From an uncultured Candidatus Saccharibacteria bacterium (GTDB taxonomy: Bacteria; Patescibacteriota; Doudnabacteria; UBA920; O2-02-FULL-48-8), in contig CAZSDS010000001.1 of NCBI GenBank assembly GCA_964605735.1, forward strand, positions 573,864 to 637,863: a DNA stretch of 64,000 nucleotides, in the 5' to 3' direction. This document shows, one piece after another, positions 3,148 through 47,759 of this stretch. Position numbers and translations under genes: made by a program. Position 1 is the stretch's first letter. Each line of letters starts with the position of its first letter. A model generated the notes under the pieces. The model had not been told where the DNA came from, did no database searches, and saw only the letters and a program-made list of their open reading frames with translations.

Positions 3148-4401
3148 TTACGGCAGGAACGATTTAAACCATTTTCGCATACGGTTGACCGTATCATTTT
3201 CCAGGACTTTTTTGGCAAATTTGTTAACTGAATGGGACGAACCCAACAGATACTCATTAGCCCAAAGAACAAGGCCTACAGCAGTGGCAAAAGCCGGATC
3301 ATTTACGCGGTCAATAACCGTGGTAACCTGACCTGGGGTGCCTAATGTCACTGGCAGGCGCAGCTGCTTTTTGGCTAATTCTACCACACCTGGAAGTTTC
3401 GCACCGCCCCCGGTCAAAATAACTCCGGCTGGCAATTGTCCGTCCTTGCCCACGCGCTTGAGTTCCTTGTTAACCAGGTCAAAAATTTCTTCTAACCTTG
3501 CTTCGACAATTTCAGCAATGTGCTTGGTGGAGACTTTGCCGTCTTCCTGCTTGTCTATCTTGGACAAATCAACATCCAGATCTTTTTTTACTTCTTTGGC
3601 TTCCGCGTAAGCGTACTGCAGTTTCAGTTTCTCAGCTGTGTCCACAGAAGTGCGCAAACCAATAGCCAAGTCATTGGTGATGTGAGTTGAACCGACTGGC
3701 AGGATGGTGCTCATGACCAAATCGCTTTCCTCAAACACAACCATGCCGGTTGTGCCGCCGCCCAAATCAATCACGGCAACACCCAGCTCTTTCTGTTTCT
3801 TGTTCAAAACAGCTTGCGCTCCGGCCAGTGGCGCCAAGACCAGATCATCGATTTCAATGCCTGCCTGCATGATGCATTTGGTCAGGTTCTTGATAAACGG
3901 AACAGAAGCCTGGATGATTTGAGAATCAACTTCCAGGCGGATGCCGGACATGCCAACCGGATCTTTAATCCCCTTTTGGCCGTCCACAGTAAAGGTTTTT
4001 GGAATGACGTGCAGAATTTCGCGGTTTGAAGGGATTGAGATAGCCTGCGAGGCATCCACTACCCGGACCACATCATTTTCTGTGACTTCCCCGTCAGCAC
4101 GGGCAACTGCCACAACTCCATGGCTTTCCTGGGAAGAAATATGAGCCCCGCCCACTGAAACCACAGCATGATCAATGGAAAGCCCTGTCATGCGCTCAGC
4201 TTTTTCCAAGGCCTCAGAAATGGAAGACACCGCTTCGTCTATATCAACTATGACTCCGCGGCGTATGCCAAGAGACTGGGCTTCACCCACGCCAATAATG
4301 CTTGGATGACCGATCTCAGATTCCTGTTTTCCAATTACCACTCGGATTGTGCTTGACCCAACATCCAATCCGACAAAGATTTGTTCTTTAGCCATGGACA
4401 A
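3148..4401 (-). CDS. ftsA: Cell division protein FtsA (actin-like ATPase)
   Basis: 417 aa. The sequence IFVGLDVGSSTIRVVIG and the DLGGGTTG motif match FtsA. It lies immediately upstream of ftsZ. Confidence 0.95.
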   Translation of the reverse strand: MSMAKEQIFVGLDVGSSTIRVVIGKQESEIGHPSIIGVGEAQSLGIRRGVIVDIDEAVSSISEALEKAERMTGLSIDHAVVSVGGAHISSQESHGVVAVARADGEVTENDVVRVVDASQAISIPSNREILHVIPKTFTVDGQKGIKDPVGMSGIRLEVDSQIIQASVPFIKNLTKCIMQAGIEIDDLVLAPLAGAQAVLNKKQKELGVAVIDLGGGTTGMVVFEESDLVMSTILPVGSTHITNDLAIGLRTSVDTAEKLKLQYAYAEAKEVKKDLDVDLSKIDKQEDGKVSTKHIAEIVEARLEEIFDLVNKELKRVGKDGQLPAGVILTGGGAKLPGVVELAKKQLRLPVTLGTPGQVTTVIDRVNDPAFATAVGLVLWANEYLLGSSHSVNKFAKKVLENDTVNRMRKWFKSFLP

Positions 4402-11730: not shown

Positions 11731-12816
11731 ATGTCAACCCCTAACCACATTTACTGGCATGCACTTAATACCCTGATTTTCGAAGGTTTATGCCAATTTC
11801 TCCCTGCAGCAAGACAGCTTGGAGGGCCGGAAAATCTTTACCACGCGAGCGAAAACCGTCTGGTTAAAGCCGGCTTAAACCCCGCGCTTATCAAAAAAAT
11901 TATACCAAAGAGAATAAATATCAATCCAGCAGTTGAGTTTGGAAAACTAACCAAATCAGGGATCATTACTGTTTGTATTGAAGATAAGAATTATCCAAAA
12001 CCTTTGCGGGAAATTCCCTGCCCTCCCCCAATACTATATGTAAGAGGAAACCCAGACTTGCTTTTGGAAGATTCACTGGGCGTGGTGGGTAGCCGGAAAA
12101 TTTCAGGCTACGGAAAAGATGCAGTCAAACAGCTCGTACCGGATATGGTCAGCTATGGTTTGGCCATAGTTTCCGGAATGGCTTTTGGCGTGGATGCGGC
12201 CGCCTTAAACAGCTGTATAGAGAGCGGCGGACGCCCAGTAAGCGTCCTGGCCAGCAGTTTGGATTTTCGCGAGATCTCACCTCGCTCGCATCTCCCTTTG
12301 GCAAAGCGGATAATTGAAAAAGGTTGTCTGATTTCTGAAAATCCGCCGGGCAAACCACCACACAAGTTACTTTATCCACTGCGCAATCGTATTATTTCAG
12401 GACTGAGCAAAGGCGTGGTGCTTATCGAAGCAGCCATGGAAAGCGGCTCGCTCATCACCGCCAAATACGCCTTGGAACAGAATCGGGAGATTTTTTGCGT
12501 ACCCGGCCCGATCTTTTCCGGAAACTCATCCGGCACAAACGAATTGATCAAGCAGGGCGCCAAGTGCGTTACTTCGTTCCATGACATTGCCAGAGAGTTT
12601 GGCTGGGACCTGAAGCCTGTTCAACAAATTTTGGAGTTTGACAATGAACTGCATCAAAACATTTGCTCGCATTTGGCGCAAACACCACTGAGCATAAACG
12701 ACCTGGTTTCCAGAACAGGATTTCCCCCTGACGAAATCCTGGCAGCCGCAACAGAACTTGAAATCAAAGGCATCCTGCGGCGCTCCTTTGACGGAATGTA
12801 TGCTAAGATTAAGTAA
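11731..12816 (+). CDS. dprA: DNA processing protein DprA (Smf)
   Basis: 361 aa with a Rossmann-like DprA core (GVVGSRKIS...GLAIVSGMAFGVDAAA...GGRPVSVLASSLD) plus a C-terminal DprA_WH-like extension. Confidence 0.9.
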   Translation: MSTPNHIYWHALNTLIFEGLCQFLPAARQLGGPENLYHASENRLVKAGLNPALIKKIIPKRININPAVEFGKLTKSGIITVCIEDKNYPKPLREIPCPPPILYVRGNPDLLLEDSLGVVGSRKISGYGKDAVKQLVPDMVSYGLAIVSGMAFGVDAAALNSCIESGGRPVSVLASSLDFREISPRSHLPLAKRIIEKGCLISENPPGKPPHKLLYPLRNRIISGLSKGVVLIEAAMESGSLITAKYALEQNREIFCVPGPIFSGNSSGTNELIKQGAKCVTSFHDIAREFGWDLKPVQQILEFDNELHQNICSHLAQTPLSINDLVSRTGFPPDEILAAATELEIKGILRRSFDGMYAKIK

Positions 12817-26004: not shown

Positions 26005-26011
26005 CCAAAAG

Positions 26012-26368
26012 TCATGCGACGGCTGTGGACTGTTTCCTTGCGGAAGCGGTCTTTTTTTGTTTTGAGGTTGTTTTGGGAACGGGTTCTGAAATGACAGGCG
26101 TGTTGACGAGAACGTCCAACAGCTTGAACTTGTCCTCAATAATCTCAAAATGGACATGTACGGTGATTTCTCCGTTTCGGCGGAGTTTTCTGCACTTGTA
26201 CTGAGCTGTCACTTGGCAGGTGTACTGCAGGTGTGACTGCGGCAAATCCTTTACAATCGGTTTGGTGATTTCACACCCCACCTCGCCAAGCTTTCGTTGT
26301 GCAGCATGGATTGCAAAACTTTCCATTGAAAGGTGCTTTCCCAAGTCTTCGCACAGGTAGCGAACCAC
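26012..26368 (-). CDS. Hypothetical protein with a Lys-rich C-terminal tail
   Basis: 118 aa. GTG start at 26368 with GGAGG 7 nt upstream. It has its own minus-strand promoter (TTGTCA-N17-TAGAAT at 26405-26433). I recognise no family. Confidence 0.5.
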   Translation of the reverse strand: MVRYLCEDLGKHLSMESFAIHAAQRKLGEVGCEITKPIVKDLPQSHLQYTCQVTAQYKCRKLRRNGEITVHVHFEIIEDKFKLLDVLVNTPVISEPVPKTTSKQKKTASARKQSTAVA

Positions 26369-26438
26369 AAAGCCTCCGTTTAAACTAACTCGAAACTAAA
26401 TACTATTCTACTCCCGTAAAATCTAACTGACAAGGGCA

Positions 26439-26470
26439 GAAAAAAGCCGCCAATAAGGTATCGGCGGCTG
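26439..26470 (-). terminator. Rho-independent terminator after gene 26501..27049
   Basis: On the minus strand, hairpin agccgccgataccttattggcggct followed by tttttctg. Confidence 0.7.
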
Positions 26471-26500
26471 AAAAATTCCCGCACAGGCCACTCGCACGGC

Positions 26501-27049
26501 TCAATGGACTCCCGACTTGCTGTCATCCTCGTCAGGGCGGGAAGAGCCCTTGAGATAACCGGCAGGCCCCGGGGTTTCTGAGCTGACCACCACCCCATCT
26601 TGCACTGGCTCCGTGTTGGCTAAAGTGCGGACGAATGATTTGGTTCCGGGCCTTTGGTATTTGTATTCATAAAGGGGTAGGCCTTCGAACTTGATTTCGA
26701 TGACCTCCGGTTCCCAATCTTCATTTCGGATGCAGAACAGCCGGCACTTGGCCTTCAGTTTCTTGCCGTCGTGCAGTTCAATCTCCGCCTCGATCTTCCG
26801 GATCAGGCAGTGACTGTGGGCATCCGCCTGCTCGCTGGAGAGCATATCCTTTCTCTTGAGCGTGGTGCTCGTACTGCCGATGTAAAAGGTTGCACGAATC
26901 CAGCGGCCGCACTCATTGAAAGGATCGCCGCGAAGAATTTCGCGGATCATTTCCTCTGCCCTGATCAAGCCTGGGTCACGGTACTCTTTTCTGCCAAACC
27001 TGCTGACCCATTGCGTTCTAACCCATCTGCTCACTGCCAGAAAGCCCAT
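26501..27049 (-). CDS. Hypothetical protein (182 aa)
   Basis: I trimmed the start to ATG 27049, which is preceded by aagggggg (SD). The longer track ORF would overlap the tRNA-Lys terminator. It has its own minus-strand promoter (TTGACT-N17-TAATTT). I recognise no family. Confidence 0.5.
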   Translation of the reverse strand: MGFLAVSRWVRTQWVSRFGRKEYRDPGLIRAEEMIREILRGDPFNECGRWIRATFYIGSTSTTLKRKDMLSSEQADAHSHCLIRKIEAEIELHDGKKLKAKCRLFCIRNEDWEPEVIEIKFEGLPLYEYKYQRPGTKSFVRTLANTEPVQDGVVVSSETPGPAGYLKGSSRPDEDDSKSGVH

Positions 27050-27121
27050 ATACCCCCCTTGGTAAAATGCTCGGATGCAAATATCCTGAGCATGAAAATT
27101 ACCATAAATAGCTTTTTCAGT

Positions 27122-27153
27122 CAAAAGAAAAAACCCGACCATCAAGGTCAGGT
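27122..27153 (-). terminator. Rho-independent terminator directly after tRNA-Lys
   Basis: On the minus strand, hairpin cctgaccttgatggtcagg followed by a T-run. Confidence 0.65.
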
Positions 27154-27161
27154 ATTTTCTT

Positions 27162-27236
27162 TGGTGGGTGTGGAGCGGATCGAACGCTCGACCCTCTGCT
27201 TAAAAGGCAGGTGCTCTACCACTGAGCTACACACCC
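27162..27236 (-). tRNA. tRNA-Lys (anticodon UUU)
   Basis: Hand-folded: GGGTGTG acceptor, GCTC-AGTGGTA-GAGC D arm, CCTGC-CTTTTAA-GCAGA anticodon arm (one C.A mismatch at 27-43), GAGCG-TTCGATC-CGCTC T arm, encoded CCA. Confidence 0.88.
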
Positions 27237-27263
27237 CCTTGTCACGCATACAAACGCCTCAAT

Positions 27264-27291
27264 ATTATACAGATTTCACGGTTTTTATCAA
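27264..27291 (-). promoter_or_regulatory. Sigma70-like promoter for tRNA-Lys
   Basis: Minus strand TTGATA-N16-TATAAT ending about 25 nt upstream of the tRNA 5' end. Confidence 0.6.
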
Positions 27292-27308
27292 GTCCGTGCA
27301 TGAGGATA

Positions 27309-27337
27309 TTGACAGGCAGACCATTGCGCTCTAGAAT
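27309..27337 (+). promoter_or_regulatory. Near-consensus sigma70 promoter (divergent from the tRNA-Lys promoter)
   Basis: TTGACA-N17-TAGAAT. It drives the 27366..27593 small ORF/transcript. Confidence 0.65.
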
Positions 27338-27365
27338 GTTGTTCGTGCATCAAGCAGGAGGAAGT

Positions 27366-27593
27366 GTGTCTGAATTCGAGCTTCGAGCCTGGAAAGTTCA
27401 TCCTCATAGCCAGTCATTTGATTGGGAGAAAACGCTCAGGGCCTACAGATCCAGCCTAGAGATCATCAGAACGGACGGCAACAGAGCTCTGGTCAAAGGC
27501 AGTGAAGCAGAGGTTAGGCGCCTCAACAAAATCAGCAAAGGCAGAATTCTTTTCTCGCCCGTCACGCCCCACCCCAGGGAAAAAGTCAAATAG
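27366..27593 (+). CDS. Small hypothetical protein (about 75 aa, GTG start), or alternatively the body of a roughly 300-nt sRNA
   Basis: Framed by a near-consensus promoter and an intrinsic terminator. AGGAGG lies 4 nt before the GTG. The frame matches track ORF 27300..27593, trimmed to be downstream of the promoter. I recognise no family. Confidence 0.4.
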   Translation: MSEFELRAWKVHPHSQSFDWEKTLRAYRSSLEIIRTDGNRALVKGSEAEVRRLNKISKGRILFSPVTPHPREKVK

Positions 27594-27611
27594 ATTTTCA
27601 GTCCCTCACCG

Positions 27612-27639
27612 AAAGTGTCTCTGACACTTTCTTTTTTAT
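27612..27639 (+). terminator. Rho-independent terminator
   Basis: Hairpin aaagtgtctctgacacttt followed by cttttttat. It overlaps the dnaJ stop codon on the opposite strand. Confidence 0.7.
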
Positions 27640-28787
27640 CCGGTAAATCTGCTCCAAAAACCTTCGTCCACTTCCACGGACTCACCTTTTTCTTCAGCCA
27701 GTTTTTTAAACAAATCTTTTTCTTTCTTTGTCAGCTTGGTTGGCGTGACCACACGCACCGTCACAAATTGGTCGCCGCGGCCCGAACTGTTGATGACAGG
27801 CACTCCCTTACCTTTTAACCTGAAAACTTTTCCTGACTGGGTTCCTGCTGGAATTTTCAGCTTTACTTCCCCATCAATAGTTTCCACGTCAACGGATGTC
27901 CCTAGTGCTGCCTGATAAAAACTCACTGGGATTTCGGAAAATATATTGGACCCTTCCCGTTTCAGAGTAGGATGAGGGGCAACGTTAAGCCGCAGATACA
28001 AATCCCCTGCCCCGGATCCGCGGTAACCAACTTCACCTTCACCGCTGACGCGCACGCGAGAACCATCATCAACGCCGGCAGGTATGTTCACCTTTAATGT
28101 CTTCATGCGGCGCAATTGGCCCGTGCCTCCGCAGGTCTTACAGGCAATTTCTGGAATTTTACCGGTGCCTGAACATTGATCACATGTAGTGACTGTGGCC
28201 ATGTTCCCCAAGATTGTCCGCCTTGTGGTCCGAATCTGACCTTGGCCATGACACTTTGGACAAGTAATAACCTTGCTGCCAGGTTCTGCTCCGCTTCCGG
28301 AACACACAGTACAGGCATCTTTCTTTTCAATCTTAATTTCCTTTTCTGCGCCGAATACCGCTTCCTGAAAAGTCAGATCAATCTCTATTTCCAAATCAAT
28401 GCCGCGGGTCCTGCTCTGCCTGCGGCCGCCGCCAAAAATATCAGAAAAAATATCATAGGCATCCTCAAAGCCGCCAGCTGATGCGCCGCTAAATCCAAAG
28501 CCTTGCGCAAAATCGCCGAAATCAAAGCCTTCAAAACCGCCAAAACCAGAGCCGCCTGCTCCGCCTCCAGGCATATTCTGGTAAGCTGAGCCAAACCGGT
28601 CATATCTGGCCCGCTTATCCGGATCTGACAGCACTTGGTATGCTTCGTTTATCTGCTTGAATTTCTCAGCATTGCCATTGCCTTTGTCAGGATGGTGCTC
28701 ATGAGCCAAACGCCGGTAGGCTTTTTTGATTTCCTCCGGCGTTGCGGTTTTTGATACCCCTAATGTTTGATAAAAATCCTGTGCCAT
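27636..28787 (-). CDS. dnaJ: Chaperone DnaJ (Hsp40)
   Basis: 383 aa. It has a J-domain with HPD, a Gly/Phe-rich linker, four CxxCxGxG zinc-finger repeats and a C-terminal substrate-binding domain. Confidence 0.95.
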
Positions 28788-32043: not shown

Positions 32044-32235
32044 ATGCGCAAATCGTTTGCTAAAATCGCCAAGTTCCTTTTTCTGTTTGTAAGTGCAGTA
32101 GCTGTTTTGTTTTTGCTCGTGATCTCCCCTTGCTACCGCCTGCTGAATGCGTACCTTACGCGGAAGCTGCGCAGGAGCCAGGCCAACCAACGACCAATAA
32201 ACCAAGTAGTCGCAAGCTCGCCTCGCCGCCCGTGA
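32044..32235 (+). CDS. Small hydrophobic/basic protein (63 aa) transcribed divergently from dnaK inside the heat-shock locus
   Basis: AAGGAGG lies 5 nt before the ATG. An extended -10 (TGaTAAAAT) is upstream. The stop codon sits inside an intrinsic terminator hairpin. The N-terminus is a TM helix and the C-terminus is Arg/Lys-rich. Confidence 0.45.
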   Translation: MRKSFAKIAKFLFLFVSAVAVLFLLVISPCYRLLNAYLTRKLRRSQANQRPINQVVASSPRRP

Positions 32236-32742: not shown

Positions 32743-33294
32743 TCAGCCAACAATTTTATTTTTCCTGGCAACCACTACTTTTGCTGGGATGATGACCCTG
32801 CCATTGAGCGTAAAGCCCGGCTGAATCTCCTTAACAATCCCCTCACCGTCAGACTCCTCTTCCTGTACTGCCTCATGGAGATCAGGGTTGAATTTCTCGC
32901 CGACCGTTTTGATTTTGGCCAGGCCCAGCTCTTCCATTGTTTTCTCCAACTGAATTATTGTGGCCTTCAGGCCCAACAGCCAGTCCTTGTACTTGTCGTC
33001 ATTGGGCGCGTACTTTAAAACCTGCTCCAGGCTCTGCAACGAAGGCATTAACTTCATCACTGTCATTTCCTTGCTGTACTCAAGCAGCTCCCTGCTTTCC
33101 GTCTCTTTGCGGCGTTTGAAATTTTCAAAATCTGCGGCCGCCCGTTTCCAGTTGTTCAAATATTCTTCGTTCTCAGCCCTCAACTTATCCAGTTCACTCC
33201 GCAATTTGCCCTCTGTTTGCTCGCTTGCTTCATCGCCGTTTGAAACGGGACCGTCGTTTTGCGTCATTTCATCTTGCATATCTTCGTTAGACAT
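32743..33294 (-). CDS. grpE: Nucleotide exchange factor GrpE
   Basis: 183 aa. It has a coiled-coil N-terminus and the GrpE motif NWKRAAADFENFKRR. Confidence 0.9.
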   Translation of the reverse strand: MSNEDMQDEMTQNDGPVSNGDEASEQTEGKLRSELDKLRAENEEYLNNWKRAAADFENFKRRKETESRELLEYSKEMTVMKLMPSLQSLEQVLKYAPNDDKYKDWLLGLKATIIQLEKTMEELGLAKIKTVGEKFNPDLHEAVQEEESDGEGIVKEIQPGFTLNGRVIIPAKVVVARKNKIVG

Positions 33295-34092: not shown

Positions 34093-34119
34093 TTAGCACT
34101 CGCTTCTTAAGAGTGCTAA
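34093..34119. promoter_or_regulatory. CIRCE operator 1 (TTAGCACTC-N9-GAGTGCTAA), a perfect consensus
   Basis: ttagcactcgcttcttaagagtgctaa lies just downstream of the predicted hrcA -10. Confidence 0.9.
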
Positions 34120-34138
34120 TCGCCTAATAATAATAAAT

Positions 34139-34165
34139 TTAGCACTCAACGTTGTCAAGTGCTAA
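34139..34165. promoter_or_regulatory. CIRCE operator 2 (TTAGCACTC-N9-aAGTGCTAA), with one mismatch
   Basis: ttagcactcaacgttgtcaagtgctaa. The embedded TTGACA on the minus strand is the likely hrcA -35 (TTGACA-N17-TATTAT). Confidence 0.8.
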
Positions 34166-34211: not shown

Positions 34212-34622
34212 TCAGTCCGAAAACATGCGGTTGCTTTGGATGGCTTGGAGGAGCTTCCGGTGCCCGAAAAAAAGCGGCTGTGGCAGATTTTCAAAGGAGA
34301 ACCACCCCCAGCCAGAAAAGCTGTCAGGTTCGGTCAGCTTGGGGTCTTTGTCCGTATTCGCAAAGAACGTCACCTGTATGTAATGTTCATTGCACTCTTG
34401 GCGCGGATCATTCGTAAGGTTTACGAAGACCAGATCCACAAGCTCAATCCCCGTCTCCTCACGCACTTCCCTGATGGCGCCTGAAACCAGGGATTCAAAA
34501 GCGTCAAGCTTGCCCCCGGGCAGGCACCATTCCCCCTGTCCAACACCTCCTTTCCTTTGACCAAAAAGGACTCTGCCGTTCTTGCGCACGACGACGTTGA
34601 CGCCGATTTTTGGTGCACTCAT
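34212..34622 (-). CDS. NUDIX hydrolase
   Basis: 136 aa with the Nudix box GKLDAFESLVSGAIREVREETGIE. Confidence 0.88.
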   Translation of the reverse strand: MSAPKIGVNVVVRKNGRVLFGQRKGGVGQGEWCLPGGKLDAFESLVSGAIREVREETGIELVDLVFVNLTNDPRQECNEHYIQVTFFANTDKDPKLTEPDSFSGWGWFSFENLPQPLFFGHRKLLQAIQSNRMFSD

Positions 34623-47228: not shown

Positions 47229-47315
47229 TGGTGGGCACGGAGAGAGTCGAACTCTCACGGGATTGCTCCCGCACGCACCTGAAGCGTGTGCGTCTGCCAG
47301 TTCCGCCACGTGCCC
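47229..47315 (-). tRNA. tRNA-Leu (anticodon CAG), type II with a long variable arm
   Basis: Hand-folded: GGGCACG acceptor, D arm, CACGC-TTCAGGT-GCGTG anticodon arm, variable hairpin CGGGAGCAATCCCG, GAGAG-TTCGACT-CTCTC T arm, encoded CCA. Confidence 0.85.
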
Positions 47316-47396
47316 ATATTCATTTGTGCAACATTGAAAATTTACGCTATTTTTTTAGTTTTGTAAAGTAACCAAAGCCAGCTACAAGGAGGGTTC

Positions 47397-47759
47397 ATGA
47401 AAGACAATGAGAAATTTCTCACTGCGGCGCAGGCCGGCAAGGAAGTTGGCGTAAGCAAACGGGCTATTTATGCCTGGCTTCATGCGGGCAAAATAACAGC
47501 GGTTGAGCGGACCCGGGGGCACATAATCATTCCCAGGTCTTCCCTCTACAGACTTACCAACACCAGGACCATTCCCGGCACTGATGGTCAGAAATGGGCT
47601 GGGATTAATAAAGCCAGCGCGTACGCAAAAATCCACAAGAACACCCTGTTCAAATGGCTTCGGTCCGGAGAAATCGAATATGCCCACACCGCCGGAGGCA
47701 GCCCGCTGATCCGATTGAATTCCCTTCTCAGATACAGACGCCAACGCATGGGAAATTGA
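47397..47759 (+). CDS. Tandem helix-turn-helix (excisionase/Xis-type HTH_17 x2) DNA-binding protein
   Basis: 120 aa. CAAGGAGGG is the SD. Two repeats of the excisionase-family HTH are present (LTAAQAGKEVGVSKRAIYAWLHAGKITAVE and INKASAYAKIHKNTLFKWLRSGEIEYAH). It lies 82 bp from the tRNA-Leu 5' end. Confidence 0.65.
   Translation: MKDNEKFLTAAQAGKEVGVSKRAIYAWLHAGKITAVERTRGHIIIPRSSLYRLTNTRTIPGTDGQKWAGINKASAYAKIHKNTLFKWLRSGEIEYAHTAGGSPLIRLNSLLRYRRQRMGN

Follow-up and report, generated by a model that had tools for sequence, protein, structure and literature searches.

A 75-codon open reading frame with its own promoter and terminator on a species-specific insertion between tRNA-Lys and dnaJ

The 64-kb window analysed here (the whole stretch of contig CAZSDS010000001.1 under study, to whose positions all coordinates refer) carries a short plus-strand unit between a tRNA-Lys gene and dnaJ, in which a near-consensus sigma-70 promoter, a Shine-Dalgarno (SD) sequence, a 75-codon open reading frame (ORF) initiated by GTG and an intrinsic terminator follow one another. 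The observation of this promoter-SD-ORF-terminator unit was confirmed as real and above chance. Comparison with related loci indicates that the whole unit is a species-specific insertion, absent from relatives, and this ~345-bp insertion probably carries, in our assessment, a lineage-specific orphan gene that codes for a protein.

Expression signals and the insertion that carries them

Sites that match the sigma-70 consensus at 11 or more of 12 positions occur five times when both strands of the 64 kb are scanned; first-order Markov simulations predict 0.46 +/- 0.67, which makes such sites about 10-fold enriched. All five are located upstream of a correctly oriented gene, namely hrcA, a DsbD-like gene, the gene at 11731, tRNA-Lys and the 75-codon ORF. 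Because such sites are enriched and all precede genes, they can be taken as informative for this genome, and the locus discussed here accounts for two of the five, which stand back to back with their -35 hexamers on opposite strands and 17 nt apart. A preliminary description of this DNA had drawn attention to these divergent promoters, as well as to a self-contained promoter-ORF-terminator unit with an AGGAGG SD, a 75-aa GTG-initiated product, a clean intrinsic terminator and a 3' end convergent with dnaJ at the end of a heat-shock operon. All of these signals were recovered at their positions and in the right order (Table 1), and the heat-shock operon was verified by its gene order, hrcA-grpE-hsp20-dnaK-DUF3467-membrane protein-dnaJ. 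The terminator hairpin, which begins 17 nt after the ORF stop codon, has a predicted stability of -11.2 kcal/mol (z = -5.0 against shuffles) and is followed by UUUUUUAU, a T-run that overlaps the dnaJ stop codon by 2 nt; read on the minus strand, the same hairpin is devoid of a U-tract.

These signals could in principle amount to a mere coincidence of motifs, without any expression, given that consensus scans are no evidence of function and that promoters of the candidate phyla radiation (CPR) lack experimental characterisation. However, the excess of near-consensus sites, each of them preceding a gene, the correct order and spacing of promoter, SD, ORF and terminator inside 345 bp, and the z-score of the terminator make such a coincidence very improbable.

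The boundaries of the unit become apparent upon comparison with relatives, the closest of which encode DnaJ proteins 75-81% identical to that of the window, while the named organisms among more distant DnaJ matches (81% over a partial alignment; 63-68%) are mostly Candidatus Doudnabacteria or Patescibacteria. On this basis the window is attributed to a CPR bacterium. In one related contig (L084; DnaJ ~82% identical), whose tRNA-Lys is identical to that of the window, the homologous tRNA-Lys promoter directly abuts the dnaJ stop codon, and in another (L083; DnaJ ~79% identical) the -35 hexamer of this promoter overlaps it. BLAST homology to both contigs spans the tRNA together with its terminator and promoter (27123-27277, reaching ~27295 in tblastx) and restarts at the dnaJ end (~27627-27637), with no BLAST match to either for 27296-27626. 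Since the homology of the relatives breaks off at the tRNA promoter and restarts at the end of dnaJ, the intervening ~345 bp (27292-27635), which have no counterpart in L083, L084 or a third relative, L002, constitute an insertion in the window. This segment consists of a single promoter, a single SD, a single ORF and a single terminator. Neither terminal repeats nor a target duplication were found around it, the window holds no second copy of the tRNA-Lys 3' end, and no paralogue of the cassette or DNA repeat was detected in the window or in the 89 loci compared. The unit does recur in a Logan contig (L001; SRR26389779), which encodes the same 75-aa product and whose identity to the window is 99.1% over 7.55 kb.

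Coding evidence, predicted product and rival readings

The assignment of the unit to a protein-coding gene draws on the position, composition and strain polymorphism of its ORF. The latter occupies the cassette from 4 nt past AGGAGG to 17 nt before the terminator and accounts for 77% of the predicted transcript. Its frame stays open for ~100 codons, beginning where the insertion starts and closing with the TAG at 27593, which by our own estimate (0.95^100) would be the case for ~0.006 of random frames of the same composition. With a codon score of 0.024, it is, if weakly, the best of the six frames (the others range from -0.08 to -1.27), this value being intermediate between those of real genes (0.305 +/- 0.148) and of spurious open frames (-0.138 +/- 0.145). 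Additionally, the only two differences between the window and L001 within the ORF (27458 and 27578) are third-position synonymous transitions, with no non-synonymous change (neutral expectation for synonymous transitions, 0.33), as compared with 35 synonymous and 20 non-synonymous changes in known genes, so that polymorphism points, if weakly, towards coding; a gene caller independently predicted the same 75-aa product in that contig. A longer, 97-aa version starting at an ATG (27300) was also considered and rejected because this ATG precedes the -10 element and because no product of this kind has been recorded.

The product has 75 residues, a mass of 8.8 kDa, a pI of 10.4 and a net charge of ~+7. 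It is hydrophilic, with a grand average of hydropathy (GRAVY) of -0.79 and a best 19-residue Kyte-Doolittle window of -0.12, so that hydropathy reveals no membrane segment; no catalytic motif was found in it either. AlphaFold2, run on the single sequence, returned a model with a pLDDT score (predicted local distance difference test) of 82, a predicted TM-score (pTM) of 0.65 and secondary structure elements in the order beta-alpha-beta-beta-alpha-beta, whereas an antisense 80-aa ORF used as the only control gave an all-helical model (pLDDT 63, pTM 0.28). The protein is thus predicted to consist of one ferredoxin-like alpha/beta domain followed by a flexible basic C-terminal tail, and from its charge and fold one may guess that its likeliest activity is the binding of nucleic acid, probably RNA, or of a partner protein. 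In view of an ORF that fills the cassette, scores best among the six frames, differs between strains by two synonymous changes only and has a predicted globular fold, the small protein is the favoured one among the options that the preliminary description had offered, whose interpretation is in this respect borne out in part.

That description had also found no recognisable family for the peptide, and extensive searches bear this out. Pfam (E <= 1), NCBIfam, PHROGs and PADLOC contain nothing for the product, a PDB sequence search gave nothing significant (best E = 0.44), Foldseek gave no match at E <= 0.001, and a word-indexed search of 5.8e9 protein clusters retrieved only the query itself. 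Back-translated scans of JGI metagenome contigs and IMG/VR yielded no relatives, blastn against phages yielded nothing, and tblastn against plasmids yielded a single match with E = 0.6. A full HMMER scan of 1.84e9 representatives returned eight weak matches beside the query; the strongest (P0002) and two others that were checked against Pfam are long TPR-repeat proteins. The E-value of P0002 (8e-11) is a sum over six near-identical repeats, each of them aligned to the same stretch of 42 residues, and it was rejected as homology because of this summation and because the best single alignment, 31.6 bits, is not significant database-wide. In line with this rejection, the product has no Pfam TPR match and its AlphaFold2 model places strands in the matching region.

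In its initiation signal and codon usage the ORF resembles an accessory class of genes with a strong SD, whose other members have codon scores of -0.03 to 0.21 (0.11 for an HTH_17 gene), a range that includes its own score. Most core genes in the window have no SD and A/T-rich leaders; a minority of mostly orphan ORFs carry AGGAGG or GGAGG 4-5 nt before the start together with lower codon scores, and this minority may constitute a pool of accessory or foreign genes in which translation is initiated in a different way. The HTH_17 gene (47397-47759; 120 aa, excisionase/MerR-like) lies on the plus strand, divergent from a minus-strand tRNA-Leu(CAG) (region 47229-47759), and its AGGAGG-N4-ATG has the same geometry as the AGGAGG-N4-start of the 75-codon ORF. 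The layout of the two tRNA-adjacent loci is likewise the same, which hints at mobile-element cargo beside tRNAs.

Several observations weigh against a protein-coding gene. The codon score corresponds to the 4th percentile of 75-codon chunks of real genes and is equalled or exceeded by 10.5% of spurious open frames; the informative polymorphisms number just two, and the chance of both being synonymous under neutrality is ~0.05-0.11; and GTG starts and strong SDs are unusual among the core genes of this genome. Moreover, no homologue exists in any collection searched, apart from the 99.1%-identical strain, transcript and translation are deduced from sequence signals, and AlphaFold2 assigns high pLDDT values to short spurious or random sequences below 100 aa (PMC13294457), against which a single control stands here. 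However, such high-scoring spurious sequences are mostly single helices and not globular folds (PMC13294457).

A rival reading takes the unit for a transcribed or translated relic or proto-gene, i.e., recent foreign or mobile DNA whose signals still work, with an ORF that is not under selection and any peptide functionless. Restriction to a single species with no homologue anywhere, an intermediate codon score, a location in a rearrangement hot spot full of ORFans, and a density of single-nucleotide polymorphisms (SNPs) within the ORF (2 in 228 nt) equal to the regional average (65 in 7551 nt) all agree with this view. We nonetheless consider it rather unlikely, as the 75-codon frame is intact and bracketed exactly by SD and terminator, both of its SNPs are synonymous, a confident globular fold is predicted for the product but not for the antisense control, and the expression signals are all near consensus, with no trace of decay. 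Alternatively, the unit could specify a non-coding or dual-function small RNA (sRNA) of ~290 nt acting as RNA, e.g., in trans, by convergent transcription or by pairing in antisense with transcripts that read through from dnaJ. A defined promoter and terminator would suit such a molecule, and a sense/antisense overlap is plausible given the convergence with dnaJ, whose 3' end is devoid of a U-tract terminator. However, the transcript folds no better than shuffled sequences (minimum free energy -78.9 versus -78.4 +/- 5.1 kcal/mol, z = -0.09; 86 of 200 shuffles fold as well), Rfam finds no family at E <= 10 other than the tRNA plus noise, most of the RNA is one ORF behind a perfect SD, and the overlap with the dnaJ coding sequence is limited to 2-3 nt. 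The structured sRNA that the preliminary description had proposed as an option therefore finds no support, and an RNA-level function appears quite improbable.

The third option raised there, a type-I-toxin-like module composed of a small toxic membrane peptide and an antisense RNA, shares with the unit just a general layout, i.e., a small ORF with strong promoter and SD and convergent transcription. It is contradicted by the properties of the product, since a hydrophilic protein with a pI of 10.4 and no transmembrane segment is not a small toxic membrane peptide. Furthermore, no minus-strand promoter-like site lies within 27340-27640, PADLOC and Pfam yield no toxin match, and an out-of-frame 31-aa ORF at 27364 shows just a 10-residue hydrophobic patch and an SD spacing of 2 nt, so that the probability of a toxin module is close to nil. 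A far better fit to type-I toxins or small membrane peptides is offered elsewhere in the window by a 63-aa ORF (32044-32235, plus strand; AGGAGG-N4-ATG) between hsp20 and dnaK, opposite in strand to the heat-shock operon. Its product has one strongly hydrophobic helix (19-residue hydropathy 2.75), a very basic tail and a pI of 12, and it is also called in L001, with three synonymous SNPs and one non-synonymous SNP.

Locus features, proposed expression and neighbourhood

Table 1. Features of the tRNA-Lys/dnaJ junction in window coordinates.
Feature	Position	Strand	Details
tRNA-Lys intrinsic terminator	27133-27153	-	8-bp stem, U-tract; -20.9 kcal/mol, z -6.1
tRNA-Lys (anticodon UUU)	27162-27236	-	Rfam tRNA, 70.5 bits; identical in L002 and L084
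tRNA-Lys promoter	27264-27291	-	TTGATA (27291-27286)-N16-TATAAT (27269-27264); 11/12 consensus matches
Species-specific insertion, ~345 bp	27292-27635		between tRNA-Lys -35 hexamer and dnaJ stop codon
Sigma-70-type promoter	27309-27337	+	TTGACA (27309-27314)-N17-TAGAAT (27332-27337); 11/12 consensus matches
Predicted transcription start	~27344-27345	+	plus-strand promoter
Shine-Dalgarno sequence AGGAGG	27356-27361	+	4 nt before start codon
75-codon ORF	27366-27593	+	GTG start 27366, TAG stop 27591-27593; product MSEFELRAWKVHPHSQSFDWEKTLRAYRSSLEIIRTDGNRALVKGSEAEVRRLNKISKGRILFSPVTPHPREKVK
Example tryptic peptides of the product			AWKVHPHSQSFDWEK, TDGNRALVK
Intrinsic terminator of the plus-strand unit	27611-27639	+	9-bp stem and 3-nt loop 27611-27631, U6 27632-27637
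dnaJ	27636-28787	-	last gene of HrcA/CIRCE heat-shock operon; stop codon 27636-27638

Following these signals, sigma-70 RNA polymerase would initiate at ~27345 from the plus-strand promoter and would stop at the hairpin and U6 (27611-27637), giving an mRNA that we infer to be about 290-298 nt long, with a 21-nt leader containing AGGAGG; translation from the GTG to the TAG would then yield a cytoplasmic, strongly basic protein. No CIRCE operator was found near the unit, and expression of the ORF should therefore be independent of HrcA. The heat-shock operon could nevertheless bear on it: because dnaJ has no U-tract terminator of its own, read-through from the operon is proposed to run antisense over the ORF as far as the terminator past tRNA-Lys (27133-27153), probably the first canonical one that such transcripts would meet. 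In the relatives, no terminator separates dnaJ from tRNA-Lys. Heat-shock induction could thus interfere with expression of the ORF or dampen it. At the other end of the operon, two CIRCE operators (TTAGCACTC-N9-GAGTGCTAA, with 0 and 1 mismatch; 34093-34165) flank or overlap the near-consensus hrcA promoter (34158-34130), and this pair represents classical HrcA control of a heat-shock operon in a CPR genome. Between the window and L001, the genes of this region diverge unevenly, with 8 non-synonymous and 4 synonymous differences in grpE (32743-33294), 4 and 1, respectively, in a Nudix gene (34212-34622), and 2 and 15 in dnaK.

The dnaJ/tRNA-Lys junction is occupied in another lineage as well. 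L002 (DnaJ ~82% identical) carries a different insertion of ~600 bp at the same place, which has a divergent promoter of its own, an SD (GGAGG), an ORF for a 159-aa protein that bears a signal peptide, and also a bidirectional terminator; an exact tRNA-Lys scan of metagenomes recovered only this organism again, as L086, with the same arrangement. The inserted promoter/leader segments of the window and L002 cannot be aligned (score 1.0 versus 3.6 +/- 1.8 for shuffled sequences), in contrast to their tRNA-Lys promoters (12 versus 5.1 +/- 2.0), and the DnaJ identities are star-like, with L002 no closer to the window than to relatives with an empty site. A common origin of the two insertions was rejected on these grounds, and they look like independent gains. 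In both cases, a distance of exactly 17 nt separates the new divergent -35 hexamer from that of the tRNA. As two lineages bear unrelated, unalignable cargo at the same junction with the same spacing, the idea arises that the dnaJ stop/tRNA-Lys -35 junction of Doudnabacteria is a recurrent landing site that captures self-contained expression cassettes without an integrase, by an unrecognised mechanism. This idea is speculative, and we hold it to be improbable; if it were true, the 75-aa product would be the first of a new small basic ferredoxin-like family drawn from an unsampled CPR mobile gene pool.

Judging from gene order across the related loci, the dnaJ/tRNA-Lys neighbourhood is a rearrangement hot spot. 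The tRNA-Lys gene is inverted in L003, L088 and L089, and extra genes occur in L087 and L089. In L088, 21 nt of the tRNA-Lys 3' end are directly duplicated (3725-3745 and 3890-3910), ~165 bp from the real tRNA, and this copy looks like an attachment-site (att)-like scar of integration or excision at tRNA-Lys. In the window, the 1.1 kb downstream of tRNA-Lys (26006-27122) likewise find no match in L083 or L084 and are lineage-specific; they include two minus-strand ORFans of 182 aa (26501-27049; codon score ~0.13-0.17) and 118 aa (26012-26368), each with promoter- or terminator-like sites and no family match. L001 stops within the tRNA (window position 27189), which may mark strain variability there.

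Other small proteins are encoded around tRNA-Lys in the relatives. Those at L084 1215-1505 (minus strand; 96 aa) and L089 4387-4611 (plus strand; 74 aa) are Cys-rich, have the motif C-x-G-C-D-Y-C-x-P-Y-G in common and show 34% identity to each other (E = 3e-5); they do not occur in the window and match no family. The 159-aa protein of L002 (5200-5679, minus strand) resembles, by eye, two tandem secreted proteins encoded downstream of dnaJ in L004 (5687-7295, minus strand). L002 and L003, the closest DnaJ loci, are labelled as Candidatus Binatia and Methylomirabilota metagenome-assembled genomes; they are probably mis-binned, since in gene order and tRNA they agree with the Doudnabacteria-type operon.

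Significance and comparison with known systems

Taken together, this is a real and tidy orphan gene cassette that is specific to one species, most likely encodes a small basic protein and is an ordinary example of a lineage-specific orphan gene. If expressed and folded as predicted, it would represent a well-delimited case of a reduced CPR genome that gained a gene very recently, in which one can see the empty site, the boundaries of the insertion and a second, seemingly independent insertion at this junction. An orphan of 75 residues for which an alpha/beta fold is confidently predicted would also lend itself to testing how orphan proteins come about and gain structure. The value of the case is illustrative rather than surprising, and it has no bearing on a long-standing question.

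Several known systems resemble the unit in part. Type-I toxins and small membrane peptides fall into the same size class and likewise have a strong promoter and SD, but the 75-codon ORF comes with neither a hydrophobic helix nor an antisense RNA gene. At the level of structure, the predicted product recalls ferredoxin-like domains such as the subtilisin propeptide/inhibitor I9, ACT, RRM and ribosomal protein S6, to which it is only 11-17% identical; this resemblance concerns a very common fold and does not imply homology. Similar to Inhibitor I9/subtilisin propeptides, the modelled protein would have beta-alpha-beta-beta-alpha-beta topology over ~70 residues, although the Pfam Inhibitor_I9 profile does not match it. 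Unlike RRM domains, it does not have, by inspection, the aromatic RNP1/RNP2 motifs (strand 3 reads RALVKG), and Pfam RRM_1 does not match it either.

Genomic islets at tRNA genes provide a parallel at the level of the locus, as they too consist of lineage-specific DNA beside a tRNA, and the relatives display an att-like duplication of the tRNA-Lys 3' end (L088) and variable cargo. In the window, however, the inserted DNA is found 5' of the tRNA, on its promoter side, rather than at its 3' end, spans only 345 bp and has neither an integrase nor flanking repeats. The closest counterparts are the orphan (ORFan) small protein genes of bacteria, with which the unit shares a short ORF with its own signals, the lack of homologues, restriction to one species, atypical codon usage and a location in a variable, tRNA-adjacent region. 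It differs from them in that few ORFans are so cleanly delimited as an insertion whose empty sites are known from relatives, and in that its predicted fold is a compact alpha/beta one instead of a disordered chain or a single helix.

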